Shown here: positions 20,604-51,067 of the stretch, piece after piece
How the letters are laid out: every line of letters starts with the position of its first letter
Position numbering within the stretch: position 1 is the stretch's first letter
Program-made: the position numbers and the translations under genes
Source of the DNA: Candidatus Omnitrophota bacterium
Lineage (GTDB): Bacteria > Omnitrophota > Gorgyraeia > Gygaellales > Profunditerraquicolaceae
NCBI GenBank assembly: GCA_041651035.1
Contig: JBAZKC010000002.1
Location: 30,884 to 94,883 of the forward strand
Length of the DNA stretch: 64,000 nt
Reading direction: 5' to 3'
Notes under the pieces: model-generated
What the model was told of the DNA's origin: nothing
Databases searched by the model: none
The model's input: only the letters and a program-made list of their open reading frames with translations

Positions 20604-20632
20604 TTGACAAAATTGTTTTTAGATGATAAACT
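20604..20632 (+). promoter_or_regulatory. Candidate promoter TTGACA-17-(TGa)TAAACT upstream of the first pilin
   Basis: TTGACA at 20604-20609; extended -10-like TGATAAACT. Confidence 0.35.
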
Positions 20633-20663
20633 GTGTGGCATTAACAATAACAGGAGGTGTCAA

Positions 20664-21092
20664 ATGAGTAGGAAAGGTTTTACGTTGCTGGAGTTGATAG
20701 TAGTAATGGTTATTATCGGTGTACTGGCTACCTTAGGTTTTAATCAATACGGAAGGATGATAGAAAGGGCTCGCGGCGCTGAAGCCAGGTCAATTTTAGG
20801 GGATATCCGCAAGTACTCTGCCGCTTATTATCTGGAAAACGGCGCGGTTACAAATCTTACCGCGACCCTTGTTAATATCGGCACGGATAACGATCAAATC
20901 CCCAGCGCATGCGCTGACTCACATTATTTCAGTTACGCTCTGACTTCCCATGTAGATCCTACTATAGTAGCTACTGCTACGCGTTGCATAGCGGATGGAA
21001 AGACTCCTGATGCGGCTACAGCCTCAACGCTTATCCTTACTTCAAATATGTCTACAGGGGTAGATGCCTGGAGCGGGACTGGCGGTTATTAA
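20664..21092 (+). CDS. Type IV (major-type) pilin, prepilin N-terminal cleavage/methylation domain
   Basis: MSRKGFTLLELIVVMVIIGVLATL has the G|FTLLE class III signal. A caggaggtg RBS precedes it, and its C-terminal domain differs from the next three pilins. Confidence 0.85.
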   Translation: MSRKGFTLLELIVVMVIIGVLATLGFNQYGRMIERARGAEARSILGDIRKYSAAYYLENGAVTNLTATLVNIGTDNDQIPSACADSHYFSYALTSHVDPTIVATATRCIADGKTPDAATASTLILTSNMSTGVDAWSGTGGY

Positions 21093-21125
21093 TTTCTATA
21101 AAGACAAATAACCCGCTGGAGTACA

Positions 21126-21539
21126 ATGAAGGATAAGGGGTTTACTTTAATAGAGCTTATTGTTGTTATTATTGTCATCGGTGTTCTGGTGACTTTGACT
21201 TTTACCCATTATGGCTCATACACGGAACGCGCTTTAAATAAAGAGGCCCAGGCAAACCTAAGGTTGATCATAGCGGCAGAACGCAATACTAGAGTAGAAA
21301 CAGGCGATTACTATGCCAGCGATTCCACTCAACCTACGGCAATAAATAATATAAATACTAATCTAAGGCTATCCCTTTCAGCGGCAACTAACCGAAAGTG
21401 GGATTACGTCACTACGGTTGATAACGCGGCTGATCCTCCTACCTGTTGTGCTCAGGCAACGAGGAATGGCGATGATTCCAGGACTTATAGGATCCGTGAT
21501 ACCGAAGACAACCCGGTCGCAGACGGTACTTGTCCATAG
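21126..21539 (+). CDS. Type IV pilin paralog A
   Basis: MKDKGFTLIELIVV..; C-terminal CCAQATRNGDDSRTYRIRDTEDNPVADGTCP disulfide loop. Confidence 0.85.
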   Translation: MKDKGFTLIELIVVIIVIGVLVTLTFTHYGSYTERALNKEAQANLRLIIAAERNTRVETGDYYASDSTQPTAINNINTNLRLSLSAATNRKWDYVTTVDNAADPPTCCAQATRNGDDSRTYRIRDTEDNPVADGTCP

Positions 21540-21572
21540 ACAGCCGACCTTTCGTAAGGCGCCCAAAATAAA

Positions 21573-22049
21573 ATGCGTAAAAAAAGCCTTACCTTTGCTC
21601 CCATACCCGGAAAACAGAGAATAAATACGCCGGCAGCGCGCGGTTTTACTTTGATGGAGATCCTGGTGGTTATTATTATAGTAGCTATTCTGGCAACTTT
21701 GGCTATAAACCAATACCGTTCATATAAGGAACATGAACTGGATAAAGAGGCGCAGGCAACCCTAAGGTTGATTATGGGGGCAGAAAAGATCTACCGCATG
21801 GAGATAGGCGGTTACTATGCCAGTGGTCCCACTCAACCTACGGCAATAAGCAATATAAATACTAATTTAAGGTTATCTATTTCTACGGCAACTAACCGGA
21901 ACTGGGACTATATCACTACAGCCGATAACGCGTCTCCTATTCCTGTTAGCTGTACTCAGGCTACAAGGAATGAGGATGAAACTGACGCCAGGACTTATAG
22001 GATACGCAATACTGAAGATGATCCTGTCGCGAACAGTATTTGTCCATAA
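21573..22049 (+). CDS. Type IV pilin paralog B with a 19-aa insertion in the leader
   Basis: MRKKSLTFAPIPGKQRINTPAARGFTLMEILVV..; the C-terminal motif CTQATRNEDETDARTYRIRNTEDDPVANSICP is shared with paralogs A and C. Confidence 0.8.
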   Translation: MRKKSLTFAPIPGKQRINTPAARGFTLMEILVVIIIVAILATLAINQYRSYKEHELDKEAQATLRLIMGAEKIYRMEIGGYYASGPTQPTAISNINTNLRLSISTATNRNWDYITTADNASPIPVSCTQATRNEDETDARTYRIRNTEDDPVANSICP

Positions 22050-22063
22050 GGGATACCCACAAA

Positions 22064-22477
22064 ATGCGTAAAAAAGGCCTTACCTTGATGGAACTCCTGG
22101 CGGTTATTGTTATAGTCGGTGTTTTAGCAACTTTGGGTTTAGGCCAATACCGTTTATACAAGGAACGTGAATTAGATAAAGAGGCGCAGGCAAACTTAAG
22201 GTTGATTACGGGGGCAGAAAAGATCTACCGCATGGAGGCAGGCAGTTACTATCCTTATATTGGAGGCACTGTTGACAACATGGCCAGTATTAATACTGAC
22301 TTAGGTTTGCTTTTGCCTACAGGCTCCGGCCGCGCGTGGAATTATCTTACGATAGCTACTGTCAGCCCCGCTGCTTTCTGCGCTCAGGCCACAAGGAATG
22401 AGGATGAGGATGACGCCAGGACTCATAGAATACGCAATACCGAAGACGATCCGGTTGCGGACGCTATTTGTCCATAG
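22064..22477 (+). CDS. Type IV pilin paralog C
   Basis: MRKKGLTLMELLAV.. and the C-terminal CAQATRNEDEDDARTHRIRNTEDDPVADAICP. The junction sequence tgtccata-N-cacaaaatgcgtaaaaaagg is repeated before paralogs B and C. Confidence 0.85.
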   Translation: MRKKGLTLMELLAVIVIVGVLATLGLGQYRLYKERELDKEAQANLRLITGAEKIYRMEAGSYYPYIGGTVDNMASINTDLGLLLPTGSGRAWNYLTIATVSPAAFCAQATRNEDEDDARTHRIRNTEDDPVADAICP

Positions 22478-22491
22478 AGGATATTCACAAA

Positions 22492-22878
22492 ATGCGTAAA
22501 AAAGGCTTTACTTTGATCGAAGTAGTTGTTGCTATGATCATCATATTAATTACATTGACTGGCCTGATACATTTATTTGTCGCCGGGAAGAAATTGATTT
22601 TACATAGCCACGCCAGGATGACCGTAGGGGAGTTAGGAAAGGTTTTTATGGACCCCTTGCAGATGCAGGTGCGCCAGGATACCTGGGATGTGGCAGGCAA
22701 TTCGTTGTTGATTGTTACGGGCGCGGATAGCACAACCTGGACAGGGGCCGCGGAAGGCTTAAATGGGATTGATTTTACTCCTGATTATACTGTAGCCAGA
22801 GTTAAGGATGCCAGCAGTAATGATACGGGTTTGCGCCGCGTAACAGTAACTGTCCAATGGGAGGAACCTTCACCGTAA
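22492..22878 (+). CDS. Minor pilin (prepilin-type N-terminus)
   Basis: MRKKGFTLIEVVVAMIIIL.. class III signal; the C-terminus is unrelated to the major pilins. Confidence 0.75.
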   Translation: MRKKGFTLIEVVVAMIIILITLTGLIHLFVAGKKLILHSHARMTVGELGKVFMDPLQMQVRQDTWDVAGNSLLIVTGADSTTWTGAAEGLNGIDFTPDYTVARVKDASSNDTGLRRVTVTVQWEEPSP

Positions 22879-26944: not shown

Positions 26945-27685
26945 ATGAACAGACTTTATTCTCCTTCTCAAAGTGTTTCCGGTGATACTATAACCTTTGA
27001 CAATAAAGAGCAGGTCCATCATGCCAGAAATGTTTTAAGGCTTAAAGTAAATGAGGAAGTTATAATATTTGACGATAAGGGCAATGAGTACTTCTGTGCT
27101 GTAGAGAAAATACTTCCGGAAAGTATTATTTTTAAGGTTAAAGAAAGAAAGGTTCCTATCAATACACTATCAAAGGTCAAGATCACAGTTGCCTGCGCTA
27201 TACCCAAAGCTTCTCATATGGATGACATTGTTGATAAGCTTACACAATTAGGGGTAGGCGCGATCATCCCTATGGAGACCGAGCGTGTGATCGTAAAGCT
27301 GGATAAGCGCAAGAAAATCTTACGCCAGGAGCGATGGGAGAAGATCATTCTAAACGCAAGCCAGCAAAGCCAGAGAAATACTTTAGCTGTATTAGAGCCG
27401 GTAAAGAAGATGGAGGGGGTGTTATCCGAATCAGCCGGTTACGATTTAAAACTGATACCCGCCTTGATAGGGGATAGGAAGCCGCTAAAAGAAGTCCTGG
27501 GTAAATATAAGCCAAAGAATATACTGGTATTAATAGGCCCCGAAGGTGATTTTACCGTCGAGGAAGTTGATTTAGCAATAAAATCCGGTTTTATACCGGT
27601 TACATTAGGGGATTCGGTCCTGCGCGTGGAAACCGCCGCTGTTAGTGTTGCGGCTTTTATCCGGCTATATTATGAAAACAGTTAA
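26945..27685 (+). CDS. rsmE: 16S rRNA (uracil1498-N3)-methyltransferase
   Basis: 246 aa, RsmE family layout (PUA-like N-domain, SPOUT C-domain ..LIGPEGDFT..). Confidence 0.8.
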   Translation: MNRLYSPSQSVSGDTITFDNKEQVHHARNVLRLKVNEEVIIFDDKGNEYFCAVEKILPESIIFKVKERKVPINTLSKVKITVACAIPKASHMDDIVDKLTQLGVGAIIPMETERVIVKLDKRKKILRQERWEKIILNASQQSQRNTLAVLEPVKKMEGVLSESAGYDLKLIPALIGDRKPLKEVLGKYKPKNILVLIGPEGDFTVEEVDLAIKSGFIPVTLGDSVLRVETAAVSVAAFIRLYYENS

Positions 27686-28967
27686 ATTCATTACTTTAGG
27701 CTGTAAGGTAAATCAATTTGATACCCAAAGTATAAGAGAGAGGTTCTTAGGGGCAGGGTACTCGGAAATAGATAACGGAAAACCCGCGGATATTTACCTG
27801 ATTAATACCTGCACAGTTACGCATAGGGCGGACTCTGATTCTCTTAATCTTATCCGCAAAGCAAAAAGAGAGAACTCCCGCGCCAAGATCATAGTTACCG
27901 GCTGCCTTACAGAACTTGATGAAGATTTAATAAGGCAGGCTGCAGCCAAGGTGATAATTGTAAAAAATAAGGATAAAGAAAAGCTGCCTTCACAGGGACT
28001 GACCCCGAAATATAACTCCCGAAGAGCTGTTCTTAGGGGTCTGTCCCTAAGAGCCAACAGCATTTCTTACTTCAAAGGCCACACCCGCGCATTCTTAAAA
28101 ATTCAGGACGGCTGCGATAATTTTTGTTCTTACTGCAAAGTCCCGTTAGTAAGAGGGAGATCGCGTAGCCGTGGCTTAGACAAGATTGTAAGCGACGCGC
28201 GGCAGCTGGTAAAAAACGGTTTTAAAGAGATAGTGCTATGTGGTATTTGCCTGGGTTCGTATGGTAAAGGCTTAAGCAGCGGCAAAAATCTTGTTGATGT
28301 GATTGAAGCGCTGGAAAAAATAGACGGGTTATTGCGCATCAGGTTGAGTTCTATAGAAGCAGGTGATGTTTCAGATAAATTGATTGCTAAGATGGCAGGC
28401 TCCGAGAAATTATGCCCGCATCTGCATATTCCTATCCAAAGCGGTGATGACGATATTTTAAAGAAAATGAACCGCCGCTATAGCCGTAAGGATTATCTGG
28501 CGCTTATCAAAAGAATAAAAAAGAATATTCCCGAAGTTGCCATTACTACGGATGTATTAGTAGGTTTTCCCGGAGAATCTGAATGCAACTTTCAAAATAC
28601 CCTGAAATTAATCAAGGAAATTCTGCCTTTAAAAGTGCATATTTTCCCTTATTCTCCGAGAAAAGGCACACTGGCTAGCGCAAAATTCAATCAAAGGATA
28701 GACCCTGGAATAATAAAAGAAAGGATTGCCCGGCTTAAGGACGTCGCCGGCAGTTGTTCGCTTGAATATAAAAAACAATTCTTGAATAGGAATATGCAGG
28801 TGCTTGTTGAAGGCCGTTCCAAAGAAAACCCCGCTTTCTGGCAGGGCCATACAGGAAATTTCCTAGAGGTTCTAATAAGGTTAGATCTTAATCTAAGCAA
28901 TAAAATCGTTACAACTAAATTAAGAAAACTAAAGGACGATTTTGTTTTAGCGGAGATTTTTCATTAG
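27675..28967 (+). CDS. mtaB: tRNA methylthiotransferase, MtaB/MiaB-like (MTTase N-domain, radical SAM, TRAM)
   Basis: MKTVKFITLGCKVNQFDTQ.., CDNFCSYCKVP radical SAM cluster. Carries a 61-bp in-frame palindromic element at 27993-28053 in the inter-domain linker. Confidence 0.85.
   Translation, partial: KTVKFITLGCKVNQFDTQSIRERFLGAGYSEIDNGKPADIYLINTCTVTHRADSDSLNLIRKAKRENSRAKIIVTGCLTELDEDLIRQAAAKVIIVKNKDKEKLPSQGLTPKYNSRRAVLRGLSLRANSISYFKGHTRAFLKIQDGCDNFCSYCKVPLVRGRSRSRGLDKIVSDARQLVKNGFKEIVLCGICLGSYGKGLSSGKNLVDVIEALEKIDGLLRIRLSSIEAGDVSDKLIAKMAGSEKLCPHLHIPIQSGDDDILKKMNRRYSRKDYLALIKRIKKNIPEVAITTDVLVGFPGESECNFQNTLKLIKEILPLKVHIFPYSPRKGTLASAKFNQRIDPGIIKERIARLKDVAGSCSLEYKKQFLNRNMQVLVEGRSKENPAFWQGHTGNFLEVLIRLDLNLSNKIVTTKLRKLKDDFVLAEIFH
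27993..28053. repeat. Type A GGGAC/GTCCC palindromic element, in-frame inside mtaB
   Basis: cagggactgaccccgaaatataactcccgaagagctgttcttaggggtctgtccctaagag; translated as QGLTPKYNSRRAVLRGLSLRA. Confidence 0.8.
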
Positions 28968-28968
28968 A

Positions 28969-29026
28969 CAGGGACTGGGTCCGAAATATAGCACCAGCAT
29001 GGTTGTTCTTAGGAGCCTGTCCCTAT
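28969..29026. repeat. Type A palindromic element, intergenic, directly after the mtaB stop
   Basis: cagggactgggtccgaaatatagcaccagcatggttgttcttaggagcctgtccctat. Confidence 0.8.
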
Positions 29027-29045
29027 TTATTTTAGCAGAATTATC

Positions 29046-29073: not shown

Positions 29074-29104
29074 AAAATCAACCAAGCCCTTAGTAAAGGA
29101 ATAT

Positions 29105-29764
29105 ATGTCTAAATTACTTATTAAGATAGGGATCACCTCATTTTTCCTGCTCATCCTCTCCTCTTTTAGTTTTGCCGAAGAAACCCTTACCTTTACCACG
29201 TATTATCCGTCACCCTATGCCAGCTACAACGAGCTCCGCGCTAAGCGTATGGCTATTGGTGATAATTATATTGACAGCACTACTTATACCTGGGAGGTAA
29301 CCGACGGAGATGGAGGAGAGGTTGATTACTTAGCTGACCTGGTAGTTGAAGGCAGGGTAGGCATCGGCACAGTTATTCCTACTGTTCCTCTGCATGTCGC
29401 AGGCGCGGCAACCGGAGCTGTAAGGATAGTAGATGGCAACCAGGCTTTAGGTTATGTCCTGACTTCAGACGCAAACGGCGTAGGCAAATGGCAGGCAAGT
29501 TCAGGTGGTATAGTATATACATACTATTGTTATAACTCTCCCAGAGGCACTCCTGTGTGTACCGACTCCGGAGGCACTCAAGGTTATTGCCCCGCAGGAT
29601 ATACGCAGAAGCTTGCCCTTGGAGCGTGGGGTGTATGCTATTATACTGTAGCAGGCTGCTACGGTGATTCATACTATTATCATTTTCTTCCTCCGAATGG
29701 CAGTTGTGGTTCTACTTATCCCACTACGCAACTTTTTGGTTACGCTTATGTATGCTCTCAGTAA
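29105..29764 (+). CDS. Secreted Cys-rich protein, paralog 1 of a tandem triplet (unknown family)
   Basis: Signal peptide MSKLLIKIGITSFFLLILSSFSFA|EE. Conserved core YYPSPY.SYNELRAKR.AIGDNYI..TTYTWE.TDGDGGEVDYLADLVVEGRVGIGTV.PT.PLHV.G..TGAVRIVDGNQA.GYVLTSDANG.GKWQASSGG, then a variable Cys/Tyr-rich tail ending YVCSQ. Confidence 0.7.
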   Translation: MSKLLIKIGITSFFLLILSSFSFAEETLTFTTYYPSPYASYNELRAKRMAIGDNYIDSTTYTWEVTDGDGGEVDYLADLVVEGRVGIGTVIPTVPLHVAGAATGAVRIVDGNQALGYVLTSDANGVGKWQASSGGIVYTYYCYNSPRGTPVCTDSGGTQGYCPAGYTQKLALGAWGVCYYTVAGCYGDSYYYHFLPPNGSCGSTYPTTQLFGYAYVCSQ

Positions 29765-29772
29765 AGGAATAT

Positions 29773-30405
29773 ATGCCTAGATTATTTATTAAAATAGGGA
29801 TCACCTCATTTTTCCTGCTCATCCTATCCTCTTTTAGTTTTTCCGAAGAAACTCTTACTATCACCTCCTATTATCCTTCACCTTACGGCAGCTACAACGA
29901 GCTCCGCGCCAAGAGAGTGGCTATAGGAGACAACTACATCAACACCACTACCTATACCTGGGAGACAACCGATGGAGACGGAGGAGAGGTTGATTACTTA
30001 GCTGACCTGGTAGTTGAAGGCAGGGTAGGTATCGGTACCGTTACTCCAACTACTCCGTTGCATATCGTAGGCACAACTACTGGAGCTGTAAGGATAGTAG
30101 ATGGCAACCAGGCTTCAGGCTATGTCTTAACATCAGACGCAAATGGCCTAGGCAAATGGCAGGCAAGTTCAGGAGGTACAATGTACATGTATTATTGTTT
30201 TTCTAGCACTACCTATGGCACTCCTGTGTGTACCAACTCCGGAGGCACCCGGCTTTATTGCCCCGCAGGATATACACAAAAACTTGCGCTTGGCGCGTGG
30301 GGTACAAGCAACGGTCTCCAAGACCCGTATTATATTCCTCCGGGCGGCAGTTTCAGTGGTATTGCTGGATATGTTGGTTCAGCCTATGTATGCTCTCAGA
30401 ATTAA
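29773..30405 (+). CDS. Secreted Cys-rich protein, paralog 2
   Basis: The ATG at 29773 is preceded by the same agtaaaggaatat unit as paralog 1, with ~85-90% nt identity to paralog 1 in the first 430 nt. Confidence 0.7.
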   Translation: MPRLFIKIGITSFFLLILSSFSFSEETLTITSYYPSPYGSYNELRAKRVAIGDNYINTTTYTWETTDGDGGEVDYLADLVVEGRVGIGTVTPTTPLHIVGTTTGAVRIVDGNQASGYVLTSDANGLGKWQASSGGTMYMYYCFSSTTYGTPVCTNSGGTRLYCPAGYTQKLALGAWGTSNGLQDPYYIPPGGSFSGIAGYVGSAYVCSQN

Positions 30406-30418
30406 AAAGAGGTGTATA

Positions 30419-31123
30419 GTGTTTAAGAACAAGTTTTTATTCTTTCCGCCACTAATCTTTATTTTATTTCTTATTCCAAATTATTTCCTTTTTGCCGAAG
30501 AAACTCTCACTATCACCTCCTATTATCCGTCACCTTACGGCAGCTACAACGAGCTCCGCGCTAAGCGTATAGCCATAGGAGATAACTATATCAATACCAC
30601 TACCTATACCTGGGAGGCAACCGACGGAGATGGAGGAGAGGTTGATTACTTAGCTGATCTGATAGTTGAAGGCAGGGTAGGCATTGGCACGGTTACTCCT
30701 ACTGTCCCGCTGCATGTTACAGGTACATCAACCGGGGCTGTAAGGATAGTAGACGGCAACCAGGCTTCAGGCTATGTCCTGACTTCAGACGCAAACGGCG
30801 TAGGCAAATGGCAGGCAAGTTCAGGTGGTACAAGTTATACATACTATTGTTATAACTCTACATATACTAGTATGTTTGGAGTCGTGATGGCTTCTACTGG
30901 TACCCCCCAATGTACCGACTCCGGAGGCACTCGAGGTTATTGCCCCGCAGGATATACGCAGAAGCTCGCGCTTGGCTCATGGGGTATATGTGCGGCAGGC
31001 GTTCTTACCTACTATGGATATTTTCTTCCTCCGAGTGGCAGTTGTGGTACCGTGAACATATCAGGTACAGATTTTGCTGCGGCTGCTGTTGTTTACGGCA
31101 CAGCATACGTTTGTTCTCAGTAA
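30419..31123 (+). CDS. Secreted Cys-rich protein, paralog 3 (probable GTG start)
   Basis: The GTG at 30419 is preceded by an aaagagg RBS. Mosaic similarity to paralogs 1 and 2, with the longest C-terminal tail. Confidence 0.6.
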   Translation: MFKNKFLFFPPLIFILFLIPNYFLFAEETLTITSYYPSPYGSYNELRAKRIAIGDNYINTTTYTWEATDGDGGEVDYLADLIVEGRVGIGTVTPTVPLHVTGTSTGAVRIVDGNQASGYVLTSDANGVGKWQASSGGTSYTYYCYNSTYTSMFGVVMASTGTPQCTDSGGTRGYCPAGYTQKLALGSWGICAAGVLTYYGYFLPPSGSCGTVNISGTDFAAAAVVYGTAYVCSQ

Positions 31124-31303: not shown

Positions 31304-31405
31304 GACAGGGACAGCCCCCAATAGCGGCGGGACACTTTCCATTGAGTTACCTTGTTTTAGCTCTGATGGAAGGTGTCCCGTAACTGTTTTCGGGGACAGT
31401 CCCTT
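31304..31405. repeat. Composite nested palindromic element (gggacagcccc .. gggacactttcc .. ggaaggtgtccc .. ggggacagtccc) followed by a T6 tract
   Basis: Seen directly: outer gggacag arms and inner gggacac/gtgtccc arms. This may act as a terminator. Confidence 0.7.
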
Positions 31406-36192: not shown

Positions 36193-36254
36193 CAGGGACT
36201 GTCCCCGAAATGTAGCTCCTGATGGGCTGTTCTTAGGGGACTGCCCCTAGAGAG
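36193..36254. repeat. Type A palindromic element between proB and proA
   Basis: cagggactgtccccgaaatgtagctcctgatgggctgttcttaggggactgcccctagagag. Confidence 0.8.
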
Positions 36255-42271: not shown

Positions 42272-42339
42272 GGGACACCCTTTTTGCCAATCGAGGGACA
42301 CCCTTTCAGCTAATCGGGAGGGTGTCCCTTCAAGGGACA
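42272..42339. repeat. gggacaccc-type palindromic element (two direct gggacaccctttt copies plus inverted agggtgtccc) between rpsA and tyrS
   Basis: gggacaccctttttgccaatcgagggacaccctttcagctaatcgggagggtgtcccttcaagggacat; can form a 9-10 bp hairpin. Confidence 0.7.
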
Positions 42340-44802: not shown

Positions 44803-45600
44803 ATGCGCGACATAAAAGGAAAGGTTTCCATAATCATGCCTGCTTATAATGAAGCAGGCCGCATCGCCGCCAGCATAGAAGAAACAGCCAAAACTTTTAA
44901 CGAGTTTGGGTGCTCTTGGGAGCTCATCGTGATGGATGACGGCTCAAGCGACGATACGTATGAGTTTACCAGAGAAATTTCCAAAAAATACCCCGCCGGC
45001 CGGATTATTATCAAAAAGAACCCTTTTAACATGGGTAAAGGCAGGGCGCTTAAAAAGGCATTACGTTACATAAGCGGGGATTACGCGGTGTTCTTAGACG
45101 CGGATATGGATTTGCACCCCATACAGGTTCAAACGCTTTTTGACATCATGCGCCTGGATAACGCTGATATAGTCATAGGCTCTAAATTGCACCCTAATTC
45201 AATAGTGGATTATTCTTTCCAGCGCAGGCTTTATAGCTGGGTTTATTATTTGTTGGTAAAGATGCTTTTTGGCCTGCCTTGTCATGATACTCAAACCGGC
45301 CTTAAGTTATTTAAGACCGAGGTCTTGCGAAAGGTTTTCCCCCGGATACTGGTAAAGAAATTTGCCTTTGACCTGGAGGTTTTGGTAAACGCGCACCACT
45401 TAGGATATAAAATGGCGGAAGCCCCGATAGTGCTTAGTCCCCAAAGGCGTTATGGCCGTATTGGGCTCAATGCCGTCTTTGTTACTTTATGGGATACCCT
45501 GGCAATATTCTATCGGATGCATATTTTAAAATATTATGACCGTATCCATTATTATCGTCGTAAAAACCTGGCAAAAGAATTTAGAAGAATGCGTAGGTAA
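44803..45600 (+). CDS. Glycosyltransferase family 2 (DPM/undecaprenyl-phosphate sugar transferase-like)
   Basis: VSIIMPAYNE..DDGSSDDT..FLDADMD motifs. Confidence 0.85.
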   Translation: MRDIKGKVSIIMPAYNEAGRIAASIEETAKTFNEFGCSWELIVMDDGSSDDTYEFTREISKKYPAGRIIIKKNPFNMGKGRALKKALRYISGDYAVFLDADMDLHPIQVQTLFDIMRLDNADIVIGSKLHPNSIVDYSFQRRLYSWVYYLLVKMLFGLPCHDTQTGLKLFKTEVLRKVFPRILVKKFAFDLEVLVNAHHLGYKMAEAPIVLSPQRRYGRIGLNAVFVTLWDTLAIFYRMHILKYYDRIHYYRRKNLAKEFRRMRR

Positions 45601-46507
45601 GTGCCTCAAACTCGACTCTGCTGAGTTTGAGATCTTGATCTTGCCTGACGAACCTATTGCCCAAAGGGACAGTCTCTGTTCGGGGACAGTCCCTATTAGA
45701 GTTATTCCCACGGGCCCTGTGTCTCCGGCTGATAAGCGGGACATAGCCATAAAATACGCGAAAGGAGACATCGTTGCTTTTATCGATGACGATGCCTATC
45801 CGGTAAAAGATTGGCTTAAAAACGCGTTAGAGAATTTTAAAGATGAAGAGGTGGCCGCGGTAGGGGGGCCGGCAATAACCAGCCCTCTGGACAGCTTAAG
45901 ACAAAAAGCAAGCGGCGCGATATATTCGTCGTTTTTAGTAAGCGGGGGATTTGTCTATCGTTATCTGCCTAAGGAAAAAAGAGAGATAGATGATTATCCG
46001 AGTTGTAATCTTCTGGTCCGTAAATCCATAATGCGGGAGTTAGGCGGTTTTAATACCAAGTTCTGGCCGGGAGAAGATACTAAGCTTTGCCTGGATATAA
46101 CTGTCAGGCTCGGTAAAAAGATAATTTATGACCCCGGTGTCCTGGTTTATCATCACCGCCGGCCGGTCTTTGTCCCCCATCTTAAGCAGATAGCTAATTA
46201 TGCCCTTCATCGCGGTTATTTCGTAAAGAAATACCCCGAAACCTCTTTAAAGTTGCCTTATTTTATTCCCACGCTATTTCTATTCGCGCTGACAATAGGC
46301 GCTATCTTGTCTATGGTTTCAGCTCCCATTAGAATAATTTATTCTTTAGGGTTGTCGTTATATTTAATTTCAGTTTTTATTTCTAGTATTCGTAATGGCG
46401 CGCGTTTGGCACCTTTTGTATTTTTCGGCATAATATTTACTCATTGCACCTATGGTTTTTATTTCCTGAAAGGCCTTTTTTACCAGAAGCTTTCCGAAGA
46501 AAAATAA
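45536..46507 (+). CDS. Glycosyltransferase family 2 with C-terminal membrane helices
   Basis: VSIIIVVK..IDDDAYP; contains a 28-bp in-frame GGGAC element at 45666-45693 (SLCSGTVP). The start overlaps the upstream GT2 by 65 nt. Confidence 0.75.
   Translation: MTVSIIIVVKTWQKNLEECVGKCLKLDSAEFEILILPDEPIAQRDSLCSGTVPIRVIPTGPVSPADKRDIAIKYAKGDIVAFIDDDAYPVKDWLKNALENFKDEEVAAVGGPAITSPLDSLRQKASGAIYSSFLVSGGFVYRYLPKEKREIDDYPSCNLLVRKSIMRELGGFNTKFWPGEDTKLCLDITVRLGKKIIYDPGVLVYHHRRPVFVPHLKQIANYALHRGYFVKKYPETSLKLPYFIPTLFLFALTIGAILSMVSAPIRIIYSLGLSLYLISVFISSIRNGARLAPFVFFGIIFTHCTYGFYFLKGLFYQKLSEEK
45666..45693. repeat. Short gggacagtc / ggggacagtccc element inside the GT2 CDS
   Basis: gggacagtctctgttcggggacagtccc. 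Confidence 0.6.
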
Positions 46508-46508
46508 T

Positions 46509-46744
46509 GGGGACGGTTCTCTTCGAGAACCGTCCCCAGGTTTCACCAAAACAGGGACTGGTTCCGAAAGCTATTTAAAATCGCGGGGATAATTTGTCAT
46601 TCTGAACTACTACTCTTTTAGTCATTCTGAGCGAAGCGAAGAATCTGTTTTTAGATTCTTCGGCCTGCGGCCTCAGAATGACGACAAGACAGGGACTGGT
46701 CCCGAAAAGTAGCTCAATATAGACTGTTCTTAGGGACCTGTCCC
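46509..46744. repeat. Intergenic nest of palindromic elements: a type B hairpin, a partial type A arm, a long gtcattctgag hairpin and a full type A element
   Basis: 46509-46537 ggggacggttctcTTCGgagaaccgtcccc (13-bp stem, UUCG loop). 46552-46575 cagggactggttccgaaagc. 46621-46682 gtcattctgagcgaagcgaagaatc..gattcttcg..ctcagaatgac, with an extra gtcattctga copy at 46596. 46690-46744 cagggactggtcccgaaaagtagc..ctgttcttagggacctgtccc. Confidence 0.8.
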
Positions 46745-46754
46745 AAAAATAAAT

Positions 46755-48248
46755 ATGAAAATTATAATTTCTTACCCGCCGTTAAAGAACCAAAAAGGCT
46801 GCCCTACGCTTGGCCAAAACCGCCAGTTCCAGTATTTTAAAGACGAAACATTTATTTATCCGGTAGTCCCGGCGCAGGCGGCTACACTGCTAAAACAAGC
46901 AGGGCATGAAGTTATTTGGAATGATTGCCTGGCTCAAGGCTGGGATTACAAAAGGTTCCTTGATTTTATAAAATCTGAGAATCCTGACCTGATCGCTTTT
47001 GAAACAAAAACTCCCGTGATCAAGCAGCACTGGCAGATAATAAACGATATTAAGGGACTGTCTCTGAATGCCCCTAAGATAGCCTTATTCGGCGACCACG
47101 TTACTGCTCTTCCGGAAGAATCATTCCAGAATTCAAAAGTAGACTTTGTATTGACTGGAGGCGACTATGATTTCTTGCTTCTGAATTTATGCAATAACCT
47201 TCAGGGGACGGTTCTCAAAGAGAACCGTCCCCATGTTTTGCCTGCCCCTGAGTTTGAACCCGGCATCTATTATCGCGAAAACAACCAAATTAAAAATACC
47301 GGAAAATTTGAGCTTAACCATGACTTAAATTCACTCCCGTTTATCGATCGTGACTTAACCAAGTGGCAGCTATATGCCCGTAAGAACGGAAATTATAAGA
47401 GGACTCCCGGGACCTACATTATGTCCGGCAGGGATTGTTGGTGGGGAAAATGCACATTTTGCAGCTGGGGGAGTTTCTATCCGTCATTCCGCAGCCGCTC
47501 TGCCAGTAACGTGTTGGATGAGATCGGTGATCTGATAAAACGGTATGGGGTAAGAGAAATAATGGATGATACGGGTAGCCTTCCTACAGGAGGGTGGCTT
47601 AGAGAATTTTGCCGGGGCATGATCTCGCGCGGCTATAATAAAAAAATTTATTTAGACTGCAATATGCGTTTTGGCGCGTTGTCAGCGGAAGAGTACCGGC
47701 TGATGAAGGAAGCCGGGTTTCGTCTGCTTTTATTTGGCTTAGAATCCGCGAATCAGTATACTTTAGACAGGGTAAATAAGAAACTGCGGGTTCAGGATAT
47801 TATTGATTCCTGTAGATCAGCCCGTAAAGCAGGGTTATTCCCGCATATTACGCTTATGTTTGGTTACCCTTGGGAAAGTTATTCCGATGCCTTAAACACC
47901 CTAAAACTGGGGAAATGGTTATTGACTAAGGGTTGCGCTTATACGATGCAGGCAACTGTAGTTATCCCGTATCCCGGCACTCCTCTTTTTGAAGAATGCA
48001 GGAAAGAACGTTGGCTAAAGACCTTAGACTGGGATGATTATGATATGAAGAAGCCTGTGATGACAACCGCCATACCCGATAATAAAATTTTAGGGTTGGT
48101 CCAGGATATGTATAAAGTTTCTTTCCGACCGGATTTTATTTTAAGAAAGATATTTTCCCTAAGGGATATTGAAGATGTAAAATACTCTTTGCGCGCGGCA
48201 AAGAAGGTGTTGGGGCATATTTTTGATTTTAAGAAGGGGGAAAGATGA
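46755..48248 (+). CDS. B12-binding domain radical SAM protein (sugar-modifying candidate)
   Basis: 497 aa, cobalamin-binding N-domain, radical SAM core. Contains an in-frame type B element at 47205-47233 (GTVLKENRPH). Confidence 0.75.
   Translation: MKIIISYPPLKNQKGCPTLGQNRQFQYFKDETFIYPVVPAQAATLLKQAGHEVIWNDCLAQGWDYKRFLDFIKSENPDLIAFETKTPVIKQHWQIINDIKGLSLNAPKIALFGDHVTALPEESFQNSKVDFVLTGGDYDFLLLNLCNNLQGTVLKENRPHVLPAPEFEPGIYYRENNQIKNTGKFELNHDLNSLPFIDRDLTKWQLYARKNGNYKRTPGTYIMSGRDCWWGKCTFCSWGSFYPSFRSRSASNVLDEIGDLIKRYGVREIMDDTGSLPTGGWLREFCRGMISRGYNKKIYLDCNMRFGALSAEEYRLMKEAGFRLLLFGLESANQYTLDRVNKKLRVQDIIDSCRSARKAGLFPHITLMFGYPWESYSDALNTLKLGKWLLTKGCAYTMQATVVIPYPGTPLFEECRKERWLKTLDWDDYDMKKPVMTTAIPDNKILGLVQDMYKVSFRPDFILRKIFSLRDIEDVKYSLRAAKKVLGHIFDFKKGER
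47205..47233. repeat. Type B palindromic element in-frame inside the radical SAM CDS
   Basis: ggggacggttctcaaagagaaccgtcccc (13-bp stem, aaa loop). Confidence 0.75.
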
Positions 48249-49114: not shown

Positions 49115-49952
49115 AATCCTTATTTTAGGCAATGGTTATATCGGTAATAGGCTTTGCGAGGAGCTCGGAGCCGAGCTTGCCGGAGGGAGGATCAGTTCTT
49201 TGCTAGATGCGCAAGAACAGATCCAGATGTATAAGCCTAACATCATTATTAACTGTATCGGGCATACCGGAAGAAACGTTGATGATTGCGAACTGGATAA
49301 GGATAAGACATTAATGGCGAATACATTTGTCCCCGTGATCTTAGGCGAAGCGGCGCTGCGCGATAATATTAAACTCATCCATATCAGCAGCGGATGTATT
49401 TACAAATTTGATTATTCTCAGGATAGTCCTATTAAAGAAGATAAGACGCCCGATTTCTTTAGGCTCTTTTATAGCCGGACCAAGATATACGCCGAACAGG
49501 CGTTAAAGGCATTGTTTAAAGAATGTCCGGCACTGATCGTCAGGATACGCATACCGCTGGACAACCGGCCCCATCCTAAGAATCTGCTTACTAAGCTGCT
49601 GGAGTACAAGAAGATTATCGATATTCCCAATTCAGTTACCTATATCCCAGATTTTATAGAAGCTTTAAAACATTTGATCCATATTAATGCCGAGGGTATT
49701 TACAATGTCGTCAATAGAGATGGCTTGCGCTACCCCGACCTTTTAGATGCATATAAGAAATACATTCCGGATTTTCAATACCGGGTCGTTGACTACAAGG
49801 AATTGAATTTAGTAAGGACTAACCTGATATTGTCTACGGCTAAACTCCAGAGATCCGGCTTTAAGGTGAGAGATATTAATTCTGTTTTAGACGAATGTGT
49901 AAGGGGATATTTGGGATATTCAGGGACTGTCCCCACCAAAGCTATTAGTTAG
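49104..49952 (+). CDS. dTDP-4-dehydrorhamnose reductase-like (RmlD substrate-binding family)
   Basis: ILILGNGYIGNRL Rossmann, HISSGCIY, YSRTKIYAE catalytic YxxxK. The last 10 codons and stop are encoded by the palindromic element at 49921. Confidence 0.65.
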   Translation: MKNKILILGNGYIGNRLCEELGAELAGGRISSLLDAQEQIQMYKPNIIINCIGHTGRNVDDCELDKDKTLMANTFVPVILGEAALRDNIKLIHISSGCIYKFDYSQDSPIKEDKTPDFFRLFYSRTKIYAEQALKALFKECPALIVRIRIPLDNRPHPKNLLTKLLEYKKIIDIPNSVTYIPDFIEALKHLIHINAEGIYNVVNRDGLRYPDLLDAYKKYIPDFQYRVVDYKELNLVRTNLILSTAKLQRSGFKVRDINSVLDECVRGYLGYSGTVPTKAIS

Positions 49953-49981
49953 CCATAACCAAGGGGACTGTCCCTAAAGAG
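49921..49981. repeat. Type A-variant palindromic element spanning the rfbD-like 3' end
   Basis: cagggactgtccccaccaaagctattagttagccataaccaaggggactgtccctaaagag. Confidence 0.75.
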
Positions 49982-49990
49982 GGTGGTATA

Positions 49991-51028
49991 ATGACCAATA
50001 AATCTATCTTGATTACCGGCGGCGCGGGTTTTATCGGCAGCGCCTTTGTAAGATTGTTAAATCAAGGGGACGGTTCTGCCTTTGGTAGAACCGTCCCCGA
50101 GTTTCACAGAACAGGAACTGTCCCTAAGATTATAGTAGTAGACAGCCTTACCTATGCCGGAGATTTAAAGCGTCTTAAAGAAGCAAAGGGCAGATTTAAG
50201 TTCTACAAAGTTGATATTTGCGATAAGAAAAGAATGGAAGCGGTCTTCGCGAAAGAAAAACCGCAAGCCGTAGTGCACTTTGCCGCGGAAAGCCACGTTG
50301 ACCGCAGTATTAATGATGCTACGCCATTTATTGAAACTAATATTAAGGGCACACAAATTCTTCTTGATGCCGGCCGCAAGCACGAGATAAATAAATTTAT
50401 TTTTATTTCCACCGACGAGGTCTACGGAGAGATTGCCAATGGCAAGTTTAACGAAAATTCTCCAATTAGGCCGAACAGCCCTTACGCGGCTTCTAAAGCG
50501 GCAGCAGACCTCCTGGTGCAGGCATATATCAGGACTTACAAATTCCCCGCGATAATTATCCGGCCGTCAAATAATTACGGCCCCTGGCAATACCCGGAAA
50601 AACTCATTCCCTTAGCTGTTTTAAAAATATTGCGCGATAAAAAAGTGCCTGTTTATGCTCAGGGCAAGAATGTCCGGGAGTGGCTTTATGTGGAAGACTG
50701 CGCGAAAGGAATTATGCGGATATTGCAAACGGGAAAGCTTGGGCAGGTTTATAACCTGGGAAGCAATGAAGAAAAACAGAATATAGACGTGGTGAAAATG
50801 ATCTTGAATATTTTCAATAAGCCCGAAAATATGATTGAATTTGTAAAGGACAGGCCCGGGCATGACATACGCTATAGCCTGGATTCCAGGAAGGCCCGTC
50901 GGGAAACTAATTGGAAACCGAAAATAAAGTTCAAAGAAGGCATTAAATTGACCGTATCTTGGTATCTCAAAAACAAGAGTTGGCTTCTTAGTAAATATCC
51001 GTCAGCAGGGACTGGTCCCGAAAAGTAG
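49991..51028 (+). CDS. rfbB: dTDP-glucose 4,6-dehydratase
   Basis: ILITGGAGFIGS.., YAASKAAAD (YxxxK). Has a 62-bp composite element inserted in-frame after the Rossmann motif (50067-50128), and its C-terminus and stop lie inside the element at 51006. Confidence 0.88.
   Translation: MTNKSILITGGAGFIGSAFVRLLNQGDGSAFGRTVPEFHRTGTVPKIIVVDSLTYAGDLKRLKEAKGRFKFYKVDICDKKRMEAVFAKEKPQAVVHFAAESHVDRSINDATPFIETNIKGTQILLDAGRKHEINKFIFISTDEVYGEIANGKFNENSPIRPNSPYAASKAAADLLVQAYIRTYKFPAIIIRPSNNYGPWQYPEKLIPLAVLKILRDKKVPVYAQGKNVREWLYVEDCAKGIMRILQTGKLGQVYNLGSNEEKQNIDVVKMILNIFNKPENMIEFVKDRPGHDIRYSLDSRKARRETNWKPKIKFKEGIKLTVSWYLKNKSWLLSKYPSAGTGPEK
50067..50128. repeat. Composite type B + partial type A element in-frame inside rfbB
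   Basis: ggggacggttctgcctttggtagaaccgtccccgagtttcacagaacaggaactgtccctaag; colinear with the intergenic composite at 46509-46575. Confidence 0.8.
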
Positions 51029-51067
51029 CTTAAGATGAACTGTTCTTAGGGACCTGTCCCTAAAGAG
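51006..51067. repeat. Type A palindromic element overlapping the rfbB stop
   Basis: cagggactggtcccgaaaagtagcttaagatgaactgttcttagggacctgtccctaaagag; the rfbB TAG is the aaaagTAG inside the element. Confidence 0.8.

Follow-up and report, generated by a model that had tools for sequence, protein, structure and literature searches.

GGGAC…GTCCC hairpins within and between genes of an Omnitrophota bacterium: probable REP/REPIN-type repeats that include in-frame copies

Described palindromic repeats and the elements of this locus

REP/REPIN repeats and their REP-associated tyrosine transposases (RAYTs) are the closest described counterpart of the elements reported here (Nunvar 2010; PMC3116915; PMC3479197; PMC6006769). 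In both cases, short imperfect palindromes form hairpins, are dispersed mostly just 3' of genes (for the elements here, within the window and among the metagenomic copies), occur as inverted copies on both sides of a single Y1/HUH transposase gene, and make longer hairpins when present as RAYT-less double copies; one arrangement described for subclass 2.4 (PMC6006769) appears in a metagenomic locus of our set (L197). Different from the known systems, the elements here lack the GTAG/CGTC tag: it is absent as a conserved feature from the hairpin foot, and the only GTAG occurrences are in the loops of some type A elements. Their conserved part is instead a 12-nt core, GGGGACGGTTCT, which at RAYT gene ends lies within a loop closed by a short, genome-specific stem (A-core-A') and which is the stem itself in the minimal 29-nt form. 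Unlike the lineage-specific classical REPs, this core is found in at least four phyla.

Intragenic REPs, stop-supplying REPs and in-frame REPs inside RAYT genes are documented (PMC3733652, PMC6006769). Di Nocera, De Gregorio and Rocco (2013, PMC3733652) described REPs lying wholly within ORFs of known proteins as well as stop codons derived from REP ends, proposed neutrality on the basis of flexible linker or loop sites, and found REPs at the same site of Xanthomonas recB in two species. The elements analysed here share these properties, but they belong to another phylum and another repeat family, occupy the same loops across many species, and are contained in, or terminate, four consecutive genes of a 5-kb cluster. 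An oddity that is already known is encountered here in a repeat family that we have not found described.

Two further systems need to be considered. Rickettsia palindromic elements (RPEs; Ogata et al. 2000), as cited in PMC3733652 and PMC10969869, are also in-frame palindromic repeats that are surface-exposed in the products of unrelated, functional genes; these citing papers give them a size of 100-150 bp, a restriction to Rickettsia and no known transposase. The elements here are 27-59 nt long, tied to a RAYT, located in Omnitrophota and without sequence similarity to RPEs. Size and host rule out membership, and only the in-frame, in-loop behaviour is alike. The IS200/IS605 family (e.g. IS608) shares the Y1 HUH transposase, the recognition of subterminal hairpins in single-stranded form and the absence of target-site duplication, and a RAYT unit with identical ends in at least three genomic contexts (P0400) shows IS-like behaviour. 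However, IS608 has two similar hairpins on the same strand, whereas the ends here are inverted copies, as in the REP arrangement, and the best family match of the transposase is RAYT and not IS200.

The window, i.e. the whole stretch of DNA that was analysed, comprises 64 kb of an Omnitrophota contig. The elements and the two principal host genes are as follows:

27993..28051 (+): type A element in the coding sequence of a MiaB/RimO-like methylthiotransferase, at the linker of the N-terminal domain to the radical SAM domain (SQGLTPKYNSRRAVLRGLSLRA)
28969..29027 (+): type A element, 1 nt past the stop of the MiaB/RimO-like methylthiotransferase gene
31308..31403 (no strand given): intergenic GGGAC…GTCCC hairpin cluster with GGGACAGCCCC, a 51-nt GGGACAC…GTGTCCC hairpin and a lone GGGACAGTCCC palindrome with a T run after it
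36193..36251 (+): type A element between proB-like and proA-like genes, 5 nt past the upstream stop
42272..42328 (+): GGGACACCC…GGGTGTCCC hairpin (1.5 copies) between the upstream gene and tyrS
45536..46507 (+): host gene 1, GT2-family glycosyltransferase (PF00535), 323-aa ORF; the element is located in the beta2-beta3 loop, residues 39-53
45666..45693 (-): 28-nt double GGGAC hairpin GGGACAGTCTCTGTTCGGGGACAGTCCC inside the GT2 coding sequence, codons R44-D-S-L-C-S-G-T-V-P53
46509..46569 (+): intergenic type B hairpin (46509-46537), 16-nt tail and left half of a type A element, beginning 1 nt past the GT2 stop
46690..46748 (+): intergenic type A element of the 59-nt family, 7 nt ahead of the radical SAM start codon
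46755..48248 (+): host gene 2, B12-binding radical SAM protein (PF02310 and PF04055)
47052..47074 (+): decayed double hairpin AAGGGACTGTCTCTGAATGCCCC in loop 1 of the radical SAM protein (KGLSLNAP)
47204..47232 (no strand given): type B REP hairpin GGGGACGGTTCTCAAAGAGAACCGTCCCC in the radical SAM coding sequence, read as G151-TVLKENRP-H160
49921..49979 (+): type A-like element covering the 3' end and stop of an RmlD-like gene (…SGTVPTKAIS*) and the spacer before rfbB
50066..50124 (+): type B hairpin inside rfbB with a longer loop and the same tail as 46509-46569, ending GGAACTGTCCC
51006..51064 (+): type A element that gives rfbB its last 7 codons and stop (…SAGTGPEK*)

Altogether, 15 element loci were counted in the 64 kb. 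Two thirds of them (10/15) are intergenic or overlap a gene 3' end, though non-coding DNA makes up only about 6% of the window, and several begin 1-7 nt past a stop codon or provide the stop codon. Family membership is less certain for the cluster at 31308-31403 and for the hairpin at 42272-42328, whose syntenic site holds similar hairpins in other Omnitrophota loci. In the 5-kb cluster, the four consecutive genes are the GT2, radical SAM, RmlD-like and rfbB genes, and the GT2 and radical SAM genes are part of a surface-glycan cluster.

Copies inside coding sequences

A sequence-only reading of this DNA had noted that the four in-CDS copies keep the reading frame, and this was borne out: the MiaB-like gene (27645-28967), the GT2 gene, the radical SAM gene and rfbB (49991-51028) are all intact and full length in comparison with their homologues. 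The in-frame status of all in-CDS copies is a survivorship expectation and not evidence of a special mechanism. The same reading had proposed that the elements would appear as insertions in orthologue alignments; for the GT2 and radical SAM genes this held, and the sites are loops of hypervariable length.

The GT2 element is a double GGGACAGTCCC hairpin with one degenerate arm (GGGACAGTCTC) and a predicted folding energy of -17.9 kcal/mol (z = -2.7, RNA parameters). Its translation as RDSLCSGTVP within 45536-46507 agrees with the sequence and the ORF, but it had been placed between the DxD-region strands, while it actually falls between beta2 (residues 31-36) and beta3 (54-56), two strands upstream of the DDD motif (84-86). 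In the structural model, block 41-50 has a pLDDT of 66 compared to a whole-model mean of 89. The loop between the ILPD and IPTG motifs is 18 aa long in the window and 12 aa in 23 of 67 orthologues; its median is 12 aa in 42 distant orthologues versus 19 aa (maximum 41) in 25 closer ones. Loop lengths of 17-41 aa in close relatives often coincide with the same elements, and 11 of the 25 closer orthologues carry GGGACNGTCCC at this position. The GT2 copy, common to members of a clade by descent or by recurrent occupation, is not private to the source genome.

The radical SAM gene holds two elements. The hairpin at 47204-47232 has a perfect 13-bp stem and a 3-nt loop, its arm corresponds to the RAYT-associated core GGGGACGGTTCT, and its predicted fold is the most stable relative to background (-26.3 kcal/mol, z = -7.5, RNA parameters). 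The 29-bp type B hairpin encoding GTVLKENRPH had been recognised correctly and is in frame, although its coordinates had been given one base off (47205-47233). It is unique to the window among 81 orthologues, in which this loop 2 varies from 8 to 36 aa, and the model shows a pLDDT of 53-64 for residues 156-170, with values <50 at residues 158-163. A partial match reported near 47055 was located at 47052-47074. This remnant has no hairpin fold now (z = -1.1), and radical SAM orthologues carry an intact 27-nt double hairpin GGGACTGTCCCCGCAGGGGACTGTCCC, translated as GLSPQGTVP, at the matching site, of which it is the decayed counterpart. Together, the window copies form a decay series from the perfect hairpin at 47204 through the one with a degenerate arm at 45666 to the remnant at 47052.

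In rfbB, the copy at 50066-50124 encodes a 15-16-aa insertion (GDGSAFGRTVPEFHRTGTVP) in comparison with solved RmlB structures. The MiaB-like copy lies in an inter-domain linker, but when the protein is aligned to MiaB 7MJV no large net insertion is seen, so that this copy is at most a candidate insertion. In the structural models, the GT2 and radical SAM loops fall in inter-strand or inter-domain segments of lower confidence.

Across the elements, predicted free energies range from -18 to -35 kcal/mol with z between -2.7 and -7.5 (RNA parameters). The conserved unit is the hairpin, with a 12-bp stem and a T.T mismatch that is kept in 18 of 21 copies; the type A element at 46690-46748, for example, combines such a stem with a loop of about 29 nt. 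Compensatory changes are found at stem positions 8-10 (T-A/A-T/G-C and C-G/T-A), and GGGAC/GTCCC forms the hairpin foot in all subfamilies. In the window, tRNA was the only Rfam 15 match above the gathering score, and across 18 element-bearing loci only sub-threshold generic long-hairpin matches coincided with element positions.

The transposase connection and alternative explanations

ORFs from 131 loci carrying GGGACGGTTCT…AGAACCGTCCC were clustered, and a single relevant recurrent family emerged, which matches Y1_Tnp (PF01797) and the NCBIfam REP-associated tyrosine transposase model. These RAYTs are about 252 aa long with a C-terminal HTH domain and score 68-78 bits against the NCBIfam model (cutoff 80); the one relative with a solved structure is E. 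coli TnpA-REP (4ER8). The core GGGGACGGTTCT flanks the RAYT genes in inverted orientation. [quoted passage not shown] When contigs of seven further RAYT homologues were fetched, all seven had A-GGGGACGGTTCT-A' upstream and six had an intact A-AGAACCGTCCCC-A' downstream, which is degenerate in L223.

The core is found at RAYT flanks and in RAYT-less copies in Bacillota, and as RAYT-less derivatives in Bacteroidota, Actinomycetota and Omnitrophota. Across at least four phyla, the core also builds nested palindromes without a RAYT, and most of these lie immediately 3' of a gene. Their A-core-A'-loop-A-core'-A' organization corresponds to two inverted REPs in a larger hairpin (REPIN/BIME arrangement), and the core is flanked by an inverted repeat of 5 nt or more in 116 of 252 half-units versus 11 of 252 in shuffles. 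Among 130 metagenomic copies, 68% are intergenic despite a coding share of 88% in the contigs, and the majority are located 3' of genes. The at least 120 raw metagenome matches are not evidence alone, as any 11-mer stem gives a few database matches: permuted-core controls hit 2 and 9 viral contigs compared to 11 for the real core, and the short 29-nt hairpin had no match in IMG/VR. The real matches are set apart from these controls because of their nested structure, multi-copy contigs and RAYT flanks. An earlier idea that the element is PVC-specific was dropped, as carriers include Bacteroidaceae, Coriobacteriia and Oscillospiraceae.

We consider it probable, at roughly 75%, that the GGGAC…GTCCC hairpins belong to the REP/REPIN type of repeat and that a RAYT whose gene is at another site of the genome disperses them in trans. 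The elements would be small, non-autonomous DNAs that are recognised as single-stranded hairpins by a REP-associated tyrosine (HUH/Y1) transposase, presumably the RAYT of the source genome. Most copies would land, or survive, just 3' of genes, while in-gene copies would persist only if the 9-20 added codons are in frame, free of stops and placed in a tolerant loop or linker. Such sites are the beta2-beta3 loop of GT2, two loops in the B12-binding part of the radical SAM protein, the RfbB loop between alpha1 and beta2, and the linker that joins the domains of the MiaB-like protein. After fixation, copies would decay; the in-CDS copies are probably neutral passengers. Inspection of the sequences beside the type B copies at 46509, 47204 and 50066 and beside the type A copies revealed no target-site duplication, which at the three type B copies fits HUH/Y1 transposition. 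A search with tblastn and an HMM of 120 homologues found no RAYT in the window or in 80 Omnitrophota loci, a weak negative at about 15-20 kb per genome. For the GGGACTGTCCC double hairpins and the type A elements, including the GT2 copy, the RAYT tie consists of core similarity (9-10 of 13 bases) and shared architecture only, and we infer from this resemblance that they may form a sister REP family with the variant core GGGAC[G/T]GT[T/C]C[T/C]C.

Simple neutral insertion does not predict two of the observations. Near-consensus copies persist in the same loops across many species whose proteins are 30% diverged, and the double hairpins are strongly biased in orientation, with 35 T-centred versus 2 A-centred copies. 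Selection, gene conversion or re-insertion could produce both. In line with selection, the hairpins might be cis-acting elements, either at the mRNA level (with effects on stability, translation pausing or co-translational folding) or at the DNA level (as on/off switches of envelope-polysaccharide genes), with the loops being kept as repeat-bearing sites. This explanation is compatible with a REP origin, and it would also account for the same three loops holding repeats in most orthologues and for the location of the host genes in a surface-glycan cluster. In one clade the GT2 and radical SAM loops contain GGGAC hairpins, in others they contain tandem heptanucleotide repeats, and 49 of 91 period-7 arrays are in the radical SAM gene. 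We nonetheless regard it as unlikely. The copies of the window range from perfect to fully decayed and loop content varies freely among species. The GT2 element is A-centred on the + strand, opposite in orientation to almost every other copy, and of the type B copies the one in the radical SAM gene seems to be inverted with respect to the intergenic one. Moreover, with almost all genes on the same strand, replication is an equally possible source of the orientation bias.

Much less probable still is an origin as MITEs of a DDE-type insertion sequence, in which GGGAC/GTCCC would be terminal inverted repeats accompanied by target-site duplications. Inverted ends, small size and several subfamilies with a common terminal pentamer would suit such elements. 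However, direct repeats are missing beside the three type B and the type A copies, and the sole recurrent transposase family in the 131 element-bearing loci is Y1/RAYT, with the core at its gene ends. The elements can be as small as 27-29 nt, and to our knowledge every described MITE is longer.

The remaining alternative, that GTVP, GLSP and RDCP are selected protein linker motifs with the palindromes as a by-product or that the matches reflect k-mer chance, is refuted by shuffling and by codon usage, even though many orthologues of GT2 and of the radical SAM protein have GTVP in the same column of the alignment. Matches to GGGACNGTCCC with at most one mismatch number 13 compared to 0.83 expected, a count that none of 100 shuffles reaches; with at most two mismatches, GGGGACGGTTCTC occurs 8 times (0.79 expected) and GGGACAGTCTCTG 9 times (0.49 expected). 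The GGGAC pentamer is itself not enriched (56 versus about 49 expected from base composition), and the signal is therefore the GGGAC-GTCCC pairing and not k-mer frequency, so that the concern raised in the sequence-only reading about chance matches does not apply. The peptide GTVP is found 21 times (2.6 expected); GGGAC[AT]GTCCC encodes 15 of these and the other 6 are one base off, i.e. codon choice is essentially fixed to the palindrome, although GGG and GTC make up only 22% of Gly and 18% of Val codons, respectively. In addition, one DNA element is read in three frames across proteins (GTVP, GLSP, RDCP), and elements identical to in-CDS copies are also intergenic. GTVP is a DNA motif and not a protein motif.

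Significance for Omnitrophota and for the RAYT family

Literature searches with the exact strings GGGACTGTCCC, GGGACAGTCCC, GGGACGGTTCT and AGAACCGTCCC returned only unrelated primers, and a search for palindromic repeats or hairpins in Omnitrophota returned nothing relevant. Assigning the elements to the REP/RAYT type gives an anonymous repeat of an uncultured phylum a place among known systems and accounts for odd peptides such as GTVP, GLSPQ, RDCPR, EPSP and NRP in predicted proteins of Omnitrophota and other metagenomes. The GT2, B12 radical SAM and RmlB loops that tolerate 10-20 extra residues are of use in annotation, alignment trimming and protein engineering.

A broader proposal is more speculative, and we advance it tentatively, with the odds against it. 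The core GGGGACGGTTCT may define an undescribed, phylum-spanning REPIN-like family that is mobilised by a widespread clade of RAYTs of about 250 aa with a C-terminal HTH; in Omnitrophota, it might be maintained, and not merely tolerated, together with the GGGACTGTCCC sister family and the tandem heptanucleotide repeats in the same loops of envelope-polysaccharide enzymes. If true, these elements and the heptanucleotide repeats could tune or switch the expression of envelope-polysaccharide genes. The RAYT clade resembles Bertels Group 1 or Quentin subclass 2.1, which were reported without associated REPs. The RAYT-flanking 12-nt core is a simple candidate substrate for this RAYT group, and this aspect could outweigh the main result.

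GGGAC hairpins in the window

Judging from the names of its closest homologues, the window belongs to a Candidatus Omnitrophota genome. Elements with GGGAC…GTCCC ends occur in the window in three forms: a 59-nt unit (type A), a hairpin with a 13-bp stem and a 3-nt loop (type B) and a short double hairpin.

27993, 28969, 36193, 46690, 49921 and 51006: type A, six copies
46509 and 47204: type B; a variant with a longer loop at 50066
45536-46507: GT2 glycosyltransferase gene (PF00535), host gene
45666-45693: short double hairpin GGGACAGTCTCTGTTCGGGGACAGTCCC in the GT2 gene, translated as RDSLCSGTVP
46755-48248: B12-binding radical SAM gene, host gene
47052-47074: partial copy in the radical SAM gene, remnant of a short double hairpin
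47204-47232: type B hairpin GGGGACGGTTCTCAAAGAGAACCGTCCCC in the radical SAM gene, translated as GTVLKENRPH

The sequence-only reading had allowed that k-mer frequency might explain the short matches. In the window, the pentamers GGGAC and GTCCC alone occur about as often as expected, whereas three pattern counts (13, 8 and 9 observed versus 0.83, 0.79 and 0.49 expected) were never reached by shuffles. The signal thus lies in the pairing of GGGAC with GTCCC, and chance does not account for it. Type A and the double hairpin share a 12-bp stem, GGGAC-T-GNNCCC / GGGNNC-T-GTCCC; the loop is about 29 nt long in type A and 3 nt in the double hairpin. A T.T mismatch in this stem is kept in 18 of 21 copies and compensatory changes occur at stem positions 8-10, which shows that the conserved unit is the hairpin and not an 11-mer palindrome. 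Apart from the remnant at 47052, every form folds much more stably than shuffled sequence. A tail of 26-28 nt is common to two of the type B copies, 46509 and 50066.

Ten of the 15 element loci are intergenic or overlap a gene 3' end, with non-coding DNA making up only about 6% of the window. Several elements begin 1-7 nt past a stop codon or themselves supply it, and no target-site duplication was seen in the flanking sequences in the window.

The window holds further repeats. In the spacer between the GT2 and radical SAM genes (46597-46684), GGGAC elements enclose a different palindromic element, GTCATTCTGAGCGAAGCGAAGAATC…GATTCTTCGGCCTGCGGCCTCAGAATGAC, which is found once in the window and is absent from 80 related loci. 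Just upstream of tyrS, GGGACACCC…GGGTGTCCC hairpins keep the same syntenic position in several Omnitrophota species (window 42272-42328; related loci L004 at about 5656, L005 at 5762, L019 at 5794, L020 at 5763 and L021 at 5766). No Rfam family matches them, and instead of mobile copies they may represent a terminator or regulatory hairpin that has been conserved. At 29086-31123, a secreted-looking protein of about 220-300 aa is encoded by three paralogues in tandem (668-nt repeat unit), and at 20604-22878 five genes in a tandem row encode proteins with prepilin-like N-termini (GFTLLELIVV…).

Translated copies and their host loops

GGG-ACN-GTC-CC translates as G-T-V-P, or as (K)GLSP and RDCP/RDSP in the remaining two frames, and none of the six frames contains a stop. 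The window and 80 related loci together comprise 370,000 codons, among which GTVP was counted 21 times (2.6 expected), encoded in 15 cases by GGGAC[AT]GTCCC and in the other six by sequences one base off. A protein-level motif is ruled out by this codon choice, by the translation of the same DNA in different frames in different proteins and by identical intergenic copies; the GGGAC elements are a DNA motif.

In-frame location within the GT2 and radical SAM genes, as proposed from the sequence alone, was confirmed for both elements and the partial copy. All four in-CDS copies do keep the frame, which is equally what survivorship predicts. The proposed alignment with orthologues, for which we used 80 Omnitrophota loci that contain the radical SAM orthologue (GT2 orthologue present in 70; 97% of coding bases on the radical SAM gene's strand), also bore the reading out. 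The GT2 loop from ILPD to IPTG is 18 aa long in the window, and 23 of 67 orthologues have a 12-aa loop. Its median length is 12 aa in 42 distant orthologues, none with the motif, versus 19 aa (maximum 41) in 25 closer ones, of which 11 contain GGGACNGTCCC; examples are RDCPRMGTVP and GTVPALAKILSTKGTVP. In the AlphaFold model, the GT2 element lies between beta2 and beta3 (block pLDDT 66 versus a model mean of 89) and not between the DxD-region strands, where it had been placed; the DDD motif follows at residues 84-86.

In radical SAM loop 1, orthologues contain an intact 27-nt GGGACTGTCCCCGCAGGGGACTGTCCC (GLSPQGTVP) versus a decayed GLSLNAP in the window. Loop 2 is 8-36 aa long and in some orthologues contains 51-nt type A elements (GLSPQ…KGTVP); its type B hairpin is found in the window only, one among 81 sequences. 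The hairpin-encoded residues 151-160 lie at the end of helix 138-155 and in a linker (AlphaFold, pLDDT 53-64). Between the GxxGxxG helix and beta2, RfbB is 15-16 residues longer than RmlB proteins of solved structure, and the MiaB-like methylthiotransferase carries a type A element in its inter-domain linker with no clear net length gain. Perfect palindromes occur in only 14 of 81 sequences, which indicates a family that is clade-restricted within the phylum.

The public GT2 gene call P0001 (288 aa) uses as its start a TTG that lies 35 codons past the ATG (window 45536-45641). The ATG is backed by all orthologues and the P0001 start removes beta1 and helix 1; this start is probably an annotation error.

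In most other Omnitrophota orthologues, both radical SAM loops contain tandem heptanucleotide repeats (CTATCGA, TTACCAA, TTACGAG, CTATCAG and others) at the equivalents of window 47052-47080 and 47195-47255, encoding 7-aa-periodic peptides such as KLSTIDYRLSTV and PITDYRLPIT. Among 91 period-7 arrays in 1.2 Mb, 49 lie in the radical SAM gene, 24 are intergenic and 16 lie in other CDSs. The unit is homogeneous inside one array and varies from species to species. An array that gained or lost a single unit would put the gene out of frame, which makes phase variation possible.

Association with a RAYT and wider distribution

ORF clustering over all element-bearing loci gave one relevant recurrent family, which matches Y1_Tnp (PF01797) and NCBIfam NF047646, 'REP-associated tyrosine transposase' (RAYT). 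On contig L143, hairpins lie on both sides of the RAYT gene. On contig L197, the 29-nt hairpin GGGGACGGTTCTCGAAGAGAACCGTCCCC, an exact reverse complement of window 46509-46537, is located 39 nt upstream of the RAYT start; a second copy forms the C-terminus and a third is in frame just past the HuH motif. Homologues of this RAYT (n=1269, about 252 aa) share the motifs NH[IVL]H, FQ[DG]R[FY] and YIHQNP and have an HTH at the C-terminus; RayT is the annotation of some, and those that are named come from Bacillota. The sole solved relative is E. coli TnpA-REP (4ER8). In all seven homologue contigs inspected, A-GGGGACGGTTCT-A' lies 55-70 nt upstream of the start codon, and in six an intact A-AGAACCGTCCCC-A' lies 10-15 nt past the stop codon, the downstream copy on contig L223 being degenerate. 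The core at the RAYT flanks indicates that the type B hairpin is a REP of a RAYT-associated family, in its minimal core-loop-core' form. The 251-aa RAYT P0400 has identical A-core-A' ends in at least three genomic contexts, adjoins an IS110-family transposase in two and is indexed on hundreds of contigs, which suggests an active, IS-like unit. The GGGACTGTCCCC arm agrees with that of type B in 9-10 of 13 bases and is also the core of similar hairpins on other contigs; these elements are inferred to be a sister family of type B.

A metagenome scan with the type B arm pattern GGGACGGTTCT-N3-33-AGAACCGTCCC matched at least 120 contigs with GC contents of 27-71%; carriers include Bacteroidaceae, Coriobacteriia and Oscillospiraceae. 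Most listed matches are nested palindromes, A-core-A'-loop-A-core'-A', in which the short flank A is contig-specific. Among the listed matches, the core lies between inverted repeats 5 nt or longer in 116 of 252 half-units, versus 11 of 252 in shuffles, and 68% of copies are intergenic on contigs that are 88% coding, mostly 3' of genes. Controls with permuted cores matched 2 and 9 viral contigs, in each case one and the same homologous locus, as against 11 viral contigs with 19 copies for the real core, multi-copy contigs among them. Since any 11-mer stem yields a few matches, the weight lies on the architecture and not on the raw count. L204, a 6.1-kb IMG/VR contig classed as viral, carries five nested GGGACGGTTCT palindromes within 6 kb.

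Origin of the elements and relation to known REPs

Taking all forms together, we consider it probable (roughly 0.75) that the elements are REP/REPIN-type hairpins; we are more confident of this in the case of type B and less so in that of the GT2 double hairpin. The hairpins would be mobilised via single-stranded DNA, without target-site duplication, by a RAYT whose gene lies in another part of the genome. Insertions would survive chiefly downstream of genes, and those within genes only if in frame and in a permissive loop, where they would then decay; the in-frame fit follows from lengths divisible by three (27 and 51 nt) and from the lack of stops in any frame.

RAYT mobilisation leaves unaccounted for the near-consensus copies in the same loops of different species and a 35:2 orientation bias of the double hairpins. 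Both could stem from gene conversion or from a selected function of the RNA or DNA, which are possible alternatives. The bias may also reflect replication direction, because 62 of the 63 window ORFs lie on one strand, the + strand.

Rickettsia palindromic elements (RPEs) are the classical in-frame case. No paper containing the element strings in a microbial context was found. REPs within genes, REPs that provide the stop codon and the argument from loops and linkers have already been described (PMC3733652). The RAYT type found here resembles Group 1 / subclass 2.1, as assigned from motifs, protein length and HTH tail alone; that group has been reported without flanking REP-like structures and with flanking 16-mers in no more than about 12 copies (PMC6006769, PMC5581495). 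Features of the elements described here that may be new are the lack of a GTAG/CGTC tag, a 12-nt core kept across phyla and a RAYT type resembling Group 1 / subclass 2.1.
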